Below are positions 21,001 to 24,000 of a DNA stretch of 64,000 bases, piece after piece. How positions within the stretch are numbered: position 1 is the stretch's first letter; each line of letters opens with the position of its first letter. Made by a program: the position numbers. The DNA lies in the NCBI RefSeq assembly GCF_057098645.1, contig NZ_CM169472.1; one strand, 5' to 3'.

Positions 21001-24000
21001 AGTTACGCGGAGATAATCCCCGGAGAAAGTCGACACACGGCTGTAAGCCACTCCCGCCATCGCATACGCGCTGAACCATTCATTCACGCGCACAGACGGC
21101 CCCGCCATTACGCTGAACCAGCGGTTACGCACGGAATCTTCATGCCAGCGGGTATCGCTGTAACGGGTAATCTGGCGATTCCTGTCTCCTGCATAGCTGA
21201 ATGACGTCACCAGCCCCAGCGTGTCCGTGAATTCATAACGGTATTTCACGTTAATCCCGTTAAGATTATCGCTACCGGGAGCGTTCGTCCGGGCATGAAG
21301 ATACCCCGCGCTCAGCGTGGCCTGCTGCTCAGACGCCCATGCAGGCGCACCGGATACGGCCAGACAAATGGCTGCGGACAAAATGGCGGCATAAAGTTTA
21401 CGCATAATTACCTCTCGCTTTTCTGCAATAAAAAAGGCGCCATTTCTGGCGCCCGTATATGGGTTATAAAATTCAGCTGATACTGATGCCTGCGGTGGCT
21501 TTCTTCATCACCACAACCAGCAAATCGCTGATACTGGTTGTTGGTGTCCAGTTATTCGCTCCTGATGAAGATACGGTGAATGTCAGTGTCAGCGTCCCCT
21601 GTCCGGCAGGCATATCTATAACTGAGGAAAATACGCCCTGAGCATCCGTCGTGGACTGCTTAAAAATCTCCTGACCATTGCGGGTCACTCTTAACCGGCA
21701 GGTTGAATACCAGTATGACTGTTGGTTATTACTGTTGAAATTCTCATGCTTACCACCGCGGAATAACACTGGCGGTATCATGACCTGCCGGTCAAACTTC
21801 TGATCATCACTGATTCTTACCGTGATGGTGCCACTGGCATAAGTGCTCGTGCGGGGGAAAGACTTGCTGACCGTTTTGACAATATCGCCTTCAATCTGGT
21901 TGGCTGACAGTTTCCCCTTAATCTGACAGTTCTCATTAATCGTGACGTTGTTGAGCGTCCCTGAGTTCGCATTCACACTGCCACTGATATCCGCATTTTT
22001 CGCCGTCAGTCGCCCGTCCGGCGTCAGGGAAAATGCCGGAGGATTGCCGGATGACGTGATACTCACCGCAAACAGCCGCTTCAGGAACACGTCGTTCATG
22101 AACAGCTGATTCCCCTGCGCCACAAATAACGGCGTGCTGTTGCCGCTCTCCGGATTTATCATCGCGATACGGTCAGCCAGCAGCAGTATGTTGCTCAGTG
22201 GCTGGCCATCAGTATCCTCAATCCCTGCACCAATCCCGGCCACATAGGGAATGCCGTCTTTCGTTTTTTGAACCTTCAGCATGTACAGCGCAGCCAGGTC
22301 ATCATTTGTGTCCTTCTGCACGCGCTGTATCTGCTGTATGGTGGCGCTCTGGTTCTCCAGCGTTTTACTGACCGTCTGTGTGATTTCATTGCGGGTTTCG
22401 GTGATGGAGGTCTTCATCTCCGCCATCTCATCCGCAAGCTGGCTGTTGTCTATCAGCTCCCACAGCCCCTGAGCCAGATGCAGTTTTCCTATTTTTTCCC
22501 GAAACAGCCCCAGATACCCTTCTGCATCATTGCTGGCCCGGCCACTGGCTTCCACAAAAGCAGATTTCCCCACCAGGTTGACGCTGCGCACGTAAAACCA
22601 GAAATCCTTCCCGGGCTTAATGTGCGGGCCGGATACACTCCACTGACTGCCGGTCCCCAGATAACGGGCAGAGGTTTCCACCTGAGATGTATCTGCGATT
22701 TTTGTCTCCGAAAACCAGAACTCAAACTGTACCGTCGGGTCATACACCGCAAGACGCGGGACCGCTGTTATCTGAAAATAGCCCGGTGTCAGCTCAATCG
22801 TGGCGGGTACCGCAGGTGCATTAATCCTGAACGTGGTGGTGGCCGGTTCCCCCTGCTGGCCATAACTGTTAATCGCCCTGACTGTCAGGGTGTATTCCCC
22901 GAGCGGCAGACCACTGAAACGATGCTCTGTATCCGCAGTGATGGCGGTGGTCACCAGACGGCTGTTTTCTCCGCTTCCGCTGGTCAGGCGCAGACTGAAG
23001 CGCACACCCTTCACCACCCGCGGCGTGTCCCATTTCGCCTGTGCCAGATACTGACCGTCAGCCGCGCTCACCTCCACCGTCAGGTGCTGCACTGCCGGTG
23101 GAATAACGCTGTTCAGGGTGCCTGACTGCGGCTCAAAGCTGGCCCCGTTATCCACGATGGCTTCCTTTTCCGGTACGTGCTGCACCGCCGTGATGGCAAA
23201 GGTGCCGTCCGTGTTTTCCCGGATGGAGACACAGCGGAACAGGCGACGACGCAGTGACGGCAGGGAGAGTCCCCATACACCGTATGTCTCCACACCATCA
23301 GGCAGGGTGCTGACCTGTATCCGGTCCGGCGCGGGGTGTGCAGTGATGGCCACGCTCACCGGCTTACCGCTGCCGTTAATCAGGTTCACCGTGGCGGCAC
23401 CTGTCTCCGGCAGGGTCACCTCACGGTCCAGTGTCAGGGTGCGGCTGGCGGCATCGATGGACAGGATACGTCCGCCGGTCATGGTCCCGGCATAGTCGTT
23501 ATCACAGATTTCAATAATGTCACCGGGTGTGTGACGCAGCCCCTGTGACCCGAGCGTGAAATCCACCGTCTGCGTTTCCAGCAGTCCGGTCTTTATCACC
23601 CACAGCCCGGCACGGTGGGCCTGACCGCGACTGGTGCAACCGAACGCATCCATCTTCAGCAGGTTGCGCCCGTAGCGCAGTATGGCTTCCGGGTCTTCCA
23701 CCAGTTCCGTGGAGGTCTGCCAGCCGTTCTGCGGGTCGGTGTAATTCACCTCCACCGCCGTGTGGCGGTCCTTCAGGGCGCTGAAGCTGTAGCGAAACCC
23801 CACGCCGTTATCATCCACCACCACATCGCTGTTGGTGTACGGCCACACCACATCCGACGGACGGTCCTGAACGAACGTCAGCGTCTGGCCGTTCCATACC
23901 GGCATACAGCGCATCGCCGAGCAGAAATCACTGAGAACGTCCCACGCCTTACGCTGTTGTGACAGGTACGCATTAAAGGTCATCCGCGGCTCTGTCCCTC

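Follow-up and report, generated by a model that had tools for sequence, protein, structure and literature searches.

Locus and gene content

The window analysed here, a stretch of 64,000 nucleotides of contig NZ_CM169472.1, contains a lambda-like E. coli prophage, in which J (gpJ) is the gene of the tail tip and central tail fibre (Table 1). The open reading frame spans 21473–24991 on the minus strand, and the homologous start is the ATG at 24949, with the sequence GGTGAG 6 nt upstream. Translation gave an intact frame of full length, free of internal stops and frameshifts. The protein scores 2330.6 bits against the NCBIfam family lambda_TipJ (NF049904) and is covered from residue 1 to residue 1158; the curated cut-off of the family is 1950 bits, and the window J thus belongs to the lambda-type TipJ proteins along its full length. 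The Pfam domains are, in order, FNIII-A_GpJ (86–207), Phage-tail_3 (330–498), Ig_J (609–712), Ig_J_second (714–814), Phage_Tail_Tip (871–998), and Ig_GpJ_C (1035–1158). The domain order is that of a lambda-type tail tip, namely hub, two FNIII/Ig domains, helical shaft, beta-prism fibre, and a C-terminal Ig-like receptor-binding domain (RBD). Two short plus-strand ORFs (21295–21480 and 21459–21641) lie inside or beside this well-supported gene and were taken as chance occurrences.

The gene context also fits a TipJ gene, with the order tape measure, M, L, K, I, J, lom, and stf, and an Arc/Ant moron is located between L and K, as in phage phi330. Besides these genes, ORFs for terS, terL, capsid, portal, tail tube, lysis genes, Q, O, and P are present. 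The side tail fibre gene and the small Phage_fiber_C ORF after it have the same layout in phages 434, WGPS2, and 1717, and phage 434 has an annotated terminator after J at the place of the terminator-like hairpin of the window. The prophage adjoins the btsS/btsR (yehU/yehT) end of the E. coli chromosome, and its far end lies outside the window. In the chromosomal flank, the sequence matches that of O145:H28 and other E. coli at 99.8% identity, and the prophage itself was not found at better than ~95–98% identity among the complete genomes searched. The production of infectious particles by the prophage is something we infer, and the copies of IS1 and IS3 inside it count against this.

Table 1 Features of the J gene and its neighbourhood in the window.
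Feature	Position	Strand	Remarks
Small ORF after the side tail fibre gene	19157–19558		Phage_fiber_C domain (Pfam)
Side tail fibre, Stf-like with collagen repeats	19428–20747	−	439 aa; Pfam phage_tail_N, Collagen
lom (Ail/Lom outer-membrane protein)	20806–21405	−	Directly downstream of J; Pfam Ail_Lom 4e-118
Terminator-like hairpin followed by T-run	21435–21454	−	19 nt past the J stop; consensus scan match only
J gene (tail-tip/central tail fibre protein)	21473–24949	−	1158 aa plus stop codon
RBD, aa 1008–1158	21476–21928	−	Ig-like, all-beta, A8/phi330 (OmpC) type
Loop A1131–P1136	21542–21559	−	Corresponds to phi330 loop A1015–P1020; predicted OmpC contact
K1097 codon (AAG)	21659–21661	−	Sole RBD residue unlike all three close relatives compared
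Hairpin loop E1069–S1078, 10 residues	21716–21745	−	Predicted to insert into OmpC; corresponds to phi330 loop E953–S962
Central straight fibre (beta-prism), aa 898–1007	21929–22258	−	Pfam Phage_Tail_Tip; 100% identical to phi330
Alpha-helical shaft (AHS) block, aa 811–897	22259–22519	−	Second divergent module, 28 extra residues versus lambda
Tail-tip assembly gene I	25185–25865	−	Upstream of J; Pfam Lambda_tail_I
Tail-tip assembly gene K	25763–26539	−	Upstream of J; Pfam Prok-JAB and NLPC_P60

Divergence from lambda J and exchange of the receptor-binding cassette

The alignment with lambda J (NC_001416 15505–18903, 1132 aa) is colinear from end to end, with an overall identity of 66–68%. Residues 1–810 and 898–1007 of the window J are 74.2% and 74.5% identical to lambda J, respectively. 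The block between them (residues 811–897), for which we use the AHS domain name from the lambda gpJ structure paper (PMC11101478), is 30.5% identical by segment (30–34% across the alignments) and contains a 28-aa insertion. For the RBD (residues 1008–1158), the identity is 44.5% (65/146 aligned positions, with several small indels), and this drop relative to the remainder of J is significant (Fisher exact p = 3e-10) and begins directly after a conserved 23-residue motif. The original prediction had described a protein colinear with lambda J for ~1000 residues but substantially different in its last ~150 residues. The C-terminal difference is confirmed by 44.5% identity over 151 residues versus ~74% in the body, and the region it had pointed to (21473–22000) fits, being residues 984–1158 plus the stop codon; the alignment did not show the high C-terminal identity to lambda J that would have spoken against it. 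The colinearity also stood, but the second strongly divergent block at residues 811–897 had been overlooked.

Pfam Ig_GpJ_C matches the C-terminus of the window J at 1.6e-35, and the window RBD is therefore a diverged allele rather than an unrelated domain. It is not of the LamB type: its identity to the lambda RBD is 44.5%, and three of the four variable-loop regions carry indels. The G+C content is 48.8% in the RBD versus 59.7% in the hub.

The beta-prism block ends with a conserved 14-residue junction motif. The RBD is a recombination cassette that is exchanged at this junction among otherwise near-identical J genes. Between the J genes of the window and WGPS2, an O157 Stx2a phage, the DNA identity falls from 92–100% to 55–71% just past the beta-prism block. 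In the WGPS2-type protein, the hub, FNIII, and helical shaft are 97–98% identical to the window (97.7% for the AHS block) and the beta-prism is 94% identical, whereas identity in the RBD is only 63%. The first variable loop of the WGPS2 RBD carries a 4-aa insertion and its hairpin is shorter; the window RBD thus falls outside the WGPS2/1A2 type. The WGPS6-type J of O157 Stx phages has a hub 98% identical to that of the window J but an RBD of the 434 type. The RBDs of the 434/WGPS6 type are 46–48% identical to the window RBD, about as distant as the lambda RBD, which places the window RBD outside that type as well. Since these distant RBDs bind OmpC too, OmpC is used by at least two distinct RBD lineages. 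Furthermore, mEp460 J combines a lambda-like hub with an RBD 80% identical to that of the window, and other EHEC phages combine a J body 97–98% identical to the window with other RBD cassettes. About 1,700 records of complete E. coli genomes contain RBD DNA with an identity of 95% or higher to that of the window.

Receptor assignment and competing readings

The best PDB match by sequence is 'A8 gpJ 713' (9wca/9wcb), which aligns with the C-terminal 313 aa of the window J (E = 7.5e-158) and is 98% identical to its C-terminal 174 residues. Over residues 1008–1158, the window RBD is 97.4% identical to A8 and 98.7% identical to the EHEC phage phi330, and this near-identity assigns it to the A8/phi330 type. 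The A8 chimera consists of lambda gpJ 1–964 and a natural E. coli prophage C-terminus, fused at an engineered junction at residue 964 (PMC11338833). The C-terminal graft onto lambda gpJ switched DNA delivery from LamB to OmpC (PMC11338833, Nature 2024), and A8 delivered into lamB/ompC double-deletion cells only with ompC supplied (PMC11338833). The structure of 'A8 gpJ 713' has been solved alone in the closed state (PDB 9WCA) and with OmpC of E. coli EDL933 (PDB 9WCB); the latter entry, titled 'Open state of A8 gpJ 713 central tail fiber with OmpC G17 from E. coli EDL933', contains three OmpC chains. Likewise, phi330 plaques on Keio strains lacking lamB, ompF, fhuA, or various other genes, whereas the ompC mutant supports no plaques unless it is complemented with ompC (PMC12502783). 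Collectively, the window RBD is very probably an A8/phi330-type Ig-like allele on a lambda-homologous body, with the trimeric porin OmpC rather than LamB as its receptor. Use of a different receptor from that of lambda had been predicted from the C-terminal divergence, together with an alignment to J proteins of known receptor as a check; the two near-identical relatives, A8 and phi330, are both OmpC-type, and their OmpC dependence at 97–99% RBD identity supports the idea and names OmpC as the likely receptor of the exact window allele. The RBDs of the PhiR30_1/PhiR70_1 phages are 97% identical to the window RBD. Phi21 was considered as a further OmpC-type relative and rejected, its J being lambda-like with native use of LamB (PMC11336670).

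The AlphaFold2 model of the window RBD is all-beta (pLDDT 77, pTM 0.75), and its top Foldseek matches are 9wcb_F (E = 6e-23, TM 0.72), 9wca_F (E = 2e-21), 8xcj_F, and 8xck_F. The predicted fold is an Ig-like beta-sandwich matching the solved RBD of A8. Loops were placed from the AlphaFold2 secondary structure and the phi330 supplement, with an offset of +116 from phi330 to window J numbering; the text of the structure paper gives no residue ranges for the lambda loops L1–L4. In the AlphaFold3 model of phi330–OmpC (supplement of PMC12502783), the phi330 loop E953–S962 points into the OmpC barrel. Its counterpart in the window, the hairpin E1069–S1078, is located within a stretch that is indel-rich and variable among RBD types. 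This hairpin and the loop A1131–P1136, which are contact loops according to the AlphaFold3 phi330–OmpC model and not the 9WCB coordinates, do not differ between the window, phi330, and A8. Residue 1097 is K in the window versus N in phi330, A8, and O157:H7 PV15-279. It lies at the base of a loop to which the phi330 model assigns no OmpC contact. K1097 recurs in four other viral contigs (IMG/VR) and is therefore a circulating allele.

The divergence from lambda could in principle be neutral drift or adaptation to a LamB allele, with LamB still serving as the receptor. The domain is homologous to that of lambda by Pfam Ig_GpJ_C and its predicted fold also matches the lambda RBD (8xcj, 8xck). Against this, RBDs 97–99% identical to that of the window need OmpC and work without LamB (A8 in lamB-deleted cells, phi330 on the Keio lamB mutant), the A8–OmpC complex has been solved, and the bottom loops contain indels relative to the lambda RBD, to which the window RBD is only 44.5% identical; continued use of LamB is thus highly improbable. 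It is also extremely unlikely that relatives such as phi330 owe their OmpC dependence to the side tail fibres, which would leave the J receptor unassigned. The Stf of Ur-lambda is reported to bind OmpC, and stf-like genes lie downstream of J in both phi330 and the window prophage. However, the A8 chimera is changed in the gpJ C-terminus only and carries a P2-derived, LPS-binding fibre as Stf, and its delivery is still OmpC-dependent (PMC11338833); moreover, the solved complex consists of a gpJ fragment and OmpC.

Within the OmpC assignment, the porin range may vary. Single J substitutions can change the receptor range, enabling Phi21 and lambda to use OmpC or OmpF as well (PMC11336670), and the related Eligo 1A2 chimera recognises EDL933 OmpC and not MG1655 OmpC (PMC11338833). 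OmpC recognition is thus allele-specific for at least one other RBD type of the family, 1A2, and the window allele may be selective among OmpC variants as well. The 1A2 RBD is tentatively of the WGPS2 type, as suggested by a by-eye translation of error-laden, machine-read supplement DNA; with its dropped bases and apparent recoding, this DNA shows ~68% identity to WGPS2 and fragmented tblastn matches. K1097, which is absent from the three close relatives, and A1151 might accordingly shift the window allele towards different OmpC variants, or OmpF too, compared with A8/phi330. Yet K1097 is outside the two predicted contact loops and beside a loop modelled off the interface, it recurs in other contigs, and A1151 is shared with the O157:H7 allele, so that such a shift seems quite unlikely. 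The broader possibility that the K1097 allele, on an EHEC-type fibre with a longer shaft, differs from A8/phi330 in the OmpC variants accepted or in ejection readiness is likewise given little credence; if true, the allele would vary naturally in specificity or sensitivity instead of duplicating the function of A8/phi330.

Many EHEC lambdoid prophages are defective, as cited in PMC12502783, and J could be a relic that is kept as recombination stock for lambdoid phages, with an RBD uninformative on present adsorption. The IS1 and IS3 copies in the prophage, the effector gene beside the tail fibre module that is split by IS1, and the portal matched by two ORFs speak for this reading, which we regard as possible though doubtful. 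On the other side, J is intact over its full length, and the prophage has ORFs for the structural, tail, and lysis genes listed above and for Q, O, and P. Moreover, a relic status bears on phage activity and not on the binding partner of the RBD.

Proposed adsorption pathway and comparison with known systems

By homology with the lambda–LamB and A8–OmpC structures, the following pathway may be proposed. Three RBDs at the fibre tip would dock onto the OmpC trimer, with the hairpin E1069–S1078 entering the barrel mouth and the loop A1131–P1136 resting on the barrel rim. Docking would spread the bases of the RBDs, and the change would pass up the beta-prism and the helical shaft. The FNIII strings would then be released, which may lead to opening of the tail tip and ejection of the DNA.

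The different J tip is a correct but ordinary observation, for the RBD is a common, already characterised OmpC-binding type. The receptor switch of this RBD class is already known, having been shown genetically, by engineering, and structurally for its relatives, and the exchange of gpJ RBD cassettes is likewise established, which leaves the case little weight as a discovery. Its value lies in annotation, as the J of the window prophage can be labelled an OmpC-type tail tip of the A8/phi330 class. This label predicts that particles, if made, adsorb via OmpC, and that ompC loss or variation leads to resistance. The high frequency of the allele among EHEC and related E. coli bears on the horizontal transfer of the T3SS effector cargo beside the tail genes; it is also relevant to the design of lambda-based delivery vectors.

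Compared with lambda gpJ (PDB 8XCJ, 8XCK, 8IYK), which binds LamB, the window J has the same domain order and architecture, a body ~74% identical, and the same Ig-like RBD fold; the two differ in the RBD sequence with its variable-loop indels, in the helical shaft, which in lambda lacks 28 aa and is ~30% identical, and in the receptor. A8 shares with the window J the RBD, both predicted OmpC-contact loops, and the conserved junction motif, and only four substitutions are found after the chimera junction (S1035N, T1036S, K1097N, and A1151S). In contrast, the hub, FNIII domains, short helical shaft, and beta-prism of A8 are those of lambda, whereas the window J has an EHEC-type body with a 28-aa longer shaft. 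Another close system is the Stx2a phage vB_EcoS_phi330 (PV189401, Pankowvirus), whose J is 95% identical to the window J over residues 104–1154, whose beta-prism is fully identical, and whose RBD differs by two substitutions, K1097N and A1151S. The gene order is shared as well: in both, K is preceded by the Arc/Ant moron, and I, J, lom, and stf come after it. The differences from phi330 are a patch of the FNIII/Ig region where identity falls to 82%, a J split near residue 104 in the phi330 record, and stx2a, which phi330 carries whereas no stx was seen in the window.

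The J gene and its prophage

The J gene, encoding the tail-tip and central tail fibre protein, lies in a lambda-type tail module. Translation from the ATG at 24949, which is homologous to the lambda start and preceded by GGTGAG, gives an uninterrupted product of 1158 aa, whose N-terminus [11 protein letters not shown] agrees with lambda MGKGSSKGHTP. The product reaches 2330 bits against NCBIfam lambda_TipJ (cut-off 1950) and contains all Pfam gpJ domains in order, the last being Ig_GpJ_C (residues 1035-1158), described as 'C-terminal receptor binding domain'. Tape measure, M, L, an Arc/Ant moron, K and I are located upstream, and lom, a side tail fibre with collagen repeats and a small fibre-C ORF downstream. 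The moron, an antirepressor with a divergent Arc-like repressor, sits inside the tail cluster between L and K, and the same arrangement is carried by the Stx2a phage vB_EcoS_phi330 (phi330). Downstream of the J stop codon there is a terminator-like hairpin, where phage 434 also has an annotated terminator.

E. coli chromosome (yehI-yehQ) makes up bases 1-9000, which share 99.8% identity with O145:H28 and further strains, and the flank ends with btsR and btsS. Beyond them there are only short ORFs in the expected place of mlrA/yehV, which suggests that the prophage occupies the yehV site, also used by Stx1 and CP-933V-type prophages. The prophage opens with effector cargo and extends past position 64000, its far end lying beyond the window, and the same prophage was not found in any complete genome of the collection searched. 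Its ORFs for structural proteins, lysis and replication, as far as seen, are all intact, and copies of IS1 and IS3 lie within it: IS1 interrupts an effector kinase gene, and an IS3-family transposase is inserted between the cI-like repressor and N. Two ORFs between the flank and the tail fibre genes are separated by DNA of only 29-32% G+C. Two adjacent ORFs (454 and 461 aa), the stop codon of the first overlapping the start codon of the second as ATGA (36803-36806), match the portal family phrog_2271 (859 positions) and may be either two natural genes or one gene that has been split. The capsid gene resembles a fusion of protease and major head protein. The stx genes are absent from their usual place between Q and the esterase-like ORF. 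A 590-aa ORF in the nin region matches only phrog_9230, a family of unknown function, has no Pfam or PADLOC family, and could be a moron or defence gene.

Features of the prophage and its flank
Feature	Coordinates	Strand	Remark
End of chromosomal flank with the short ORFs beyond it	9887-13800		
btsR	10917-11651		end of chromosomal flank
btsS	11633-13333		end of chromosomal flank
Two-ORF region	14286-17387	+	
402-aa ORF	14286-15494	+	no Pfam, NCBIfam or PADLOC match
413-aa ORF	16146-17387	+	overlaps DNA annotated nleA in related genomes
NleH/OspG-like kinase gene	17685-18953	-	interrupted by IS1
Kinase C-terminal fragment	17685-17966	-	ends ...SKI
IS1 insB-like	17987-18490		within kinase gene
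IS1 insA-like	18409-18684		within kinase gene
Kinase N-terminal fragment	18735-18953	-	
J ORF	21473-24991	-	
J shaft block	22259-22519	-	J 811-897
Moron	26555-28150		
Ant	26555-27601	-	P22-type antirepressor
Arc-like repressor	27806-28150	+	divergent
Portal ORFs	35421-38167	-	
Capsid gene	38379-40316		
Usual stx place with borders	46176-50063	-	
616-aa ORF	46176-48026	-	DUF1737/SASA esterase-like
153-aa ORF	48505-48966		TerB domain; in usual stx place
tRNA-Met	49186-49261		single; in usual stx place
Q	49575-50063	-	
590-aa ORF	52411-54183	+	opposite strand in nin region
Immunity region	59475-63906		
cI-like repressor	59475-60179	+	Peptidase_S24 domain
IS3-family transposase	61810-62697	-	
N antiterminator	63523-63906	+	

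Divergence from lambda J and exchange of modules

The window J was aligned with lambda J (NC_001416), and domains were named after the lambda gpJ structure (PMC11101478). Identity is 74% over residues 1-810 and 75% over 898-1007, and falls to 44.5%, with several small indels, over the receptor-binding domain (RBD, 1008-1158). The invariant motif [23 protein letters not shown] immediately precedes these 151 terminal residues, and the drop over them is highly significant (Fisher p = 3e-10). The original prediction had placed a C-terminal divergence at 21473-22000, the 3' end of the ORF, and is borne out, its location (J residues 984-1158) being apt. Its colinearity of about 1000 residues in fact holds end to end, but it overlooked a second divergent block, the alpha-helical shaft (811-897), with 30% identity in this alignment (range about 30-34%) and an insertion of 28 residues, or four heptads. 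The variable blocks are the shaft and the RBD, and the hub, FNIII domains and beta-prism fibre are conserved.

Identity of J modules to the window J
Phage	Hub	FNIII/Ig	Shaft	RBD
WGPS2	97.7%	97.1%	97.7%	63%
WGPS6	98%	85.7%	57.5%	47%
mEp460	76% (lambda-like)	66.2%	58.6%	80%
phi330	99%	82%	96.6%	98.7%

The modules of J assort independently among phages, and the WGPS6 RBD is 97% identical to that of 434. Since shaft identity is high in WGPS2 and phi330 and only about 58-60% in 1717, WGPS6 and mEp460, the shaft and the RBD assort independently of each other. Exactly at the RBD, DNA identity to WGPS2 falls from 92-100% to 55-71%, and G+C is 59.7% in the hub vs 48.8% in the RBD. Together with the module identities, these drops indicate that the RBD is a cassette swapped at a conserved junction, the same junction at which the engineered chimera A8 was joined (PMC11338833).

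The receptor-binding domain and OmpC

In a search of PDB sequences with the last 350 residues, the best match was 'A8 gpJ 713' (9WCA, 9WCB; E = 7.5e-158), with lambda gpJ far behind (E = 1e-91). Past the chimera junction the window J differs from A8 at four residues (S1035N, T1036S, K1097N, A1151S); the machine-read A8 supplement DNA is 94% identical to the window gene, all 10 gaps being single-base dropouts. A8 (Brodel et al., Nature 2024; PMC11338833) consists of lambda gpJ residues 1-964 and a natural prophage gpJ C-terminus, on particles with a P2-derived fibre in place of side fibres. In DNA-delivery assays on lamB/ompC double-deletion cells with plasmid-borne ompC, both MG1655 and EDL933 OmpC permitted delivery (PMC11338833). 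Entry 9WCB, 'Open state of A8 gpJ 713 central tail fiber with OmpC G17 from E. coli EDL933', also holds three chains of an OmpC variant. Because the A8 RBD works on a lambda shaft, receptor choice is independent of shaft type.

The long-tailed phage phi330 has an RBD 98.7% identical to that of the window J. Of 54 Keio outer-membrane mutants it lyses 53, lamB, ompF and fhuA among these, and fails only on the ompC mutant, on which ompC complementation restores plaquing (PMC12502783). Its record (PV189401, 3044-6459) splits J into two CDS, the frame changing near J residue 104, perhaps through a sequencing error, perhaps through a genuine frameshift; as phi330 forms plaques, its J must be functional. 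Continued use of LamB by the window RBD is contradicted by these genetics of its relatives and by the solved A8-OmpC complex, and the predicted receptor different from that of lambda is supported, since A8 and phi330 use OmpC. An origin of OmpC dependence in the side fibre rather than J is excluded by the A8 chimera design. K1097 is the sole residue private to the window RBD among the relatives examined, recurring in four IMG/VR contigs, and A1151 is common to an O157:H7 allele. That K1097 shifts the range of accepted OmpC alleles is unlikely given the position of the residue, even though single J changes altered the receptor range of Phi21 and lambda (PMC11336670), and the RBD type of another chimera, 1A2, discriminates OmpC alleles (PMC11338833).

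An AlphaFold2 model of J 985-1158 is all-beta (pLDDT 77, pTM 0.75), with 9wcb_F, 9wca_F, 8xcj_F and 8xck_F as best Foldseek matches. Comparison of six RBD types identified invariant motifs (DDxxFDRQ, NG, DMPxG, KK..GIS) and variable, indel-rich stretches (1030-1039, 1065-1082, 1097-1105, 1128-1141). From the inferred topology, the motifs would lie at one end of the sandwich and the variable stretches at the other, as expected for receptor loops. In an AlphaFold3 model of phi330, hairpin E953-S962 enters the OmpC barrel and loop A1015-P1020 rests on its rim (PMC12502783); shifted by +116 to window numbering, the predicted contact loops are E1069-S1078 and A1131-P1136, both identical across the window J, phi330 and A8. 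By homology with lambda-LamB (PMC11101478) and the A8-OmpC entry, we infer for the window allele that three RBDs would dock on the OmpC trimer and their bases spread, a movement that may be relayed via the beta-prism and helical shaft, after which the FNIII strings would be released and the tip open. The longer shaft would lengthen the fibre.

RBDs at least 95% identical in protein are encoded in 44 phage records, and RBD DNA at least 95% identical occurs in about 1,700 complete E. coli genome records, many of them O157:H7. In conclusion, the feature is a gpJ receptor-binding cassette of the OmpC type, which is widespread and has already been characterised, and it is related to those of A8 and phi330.
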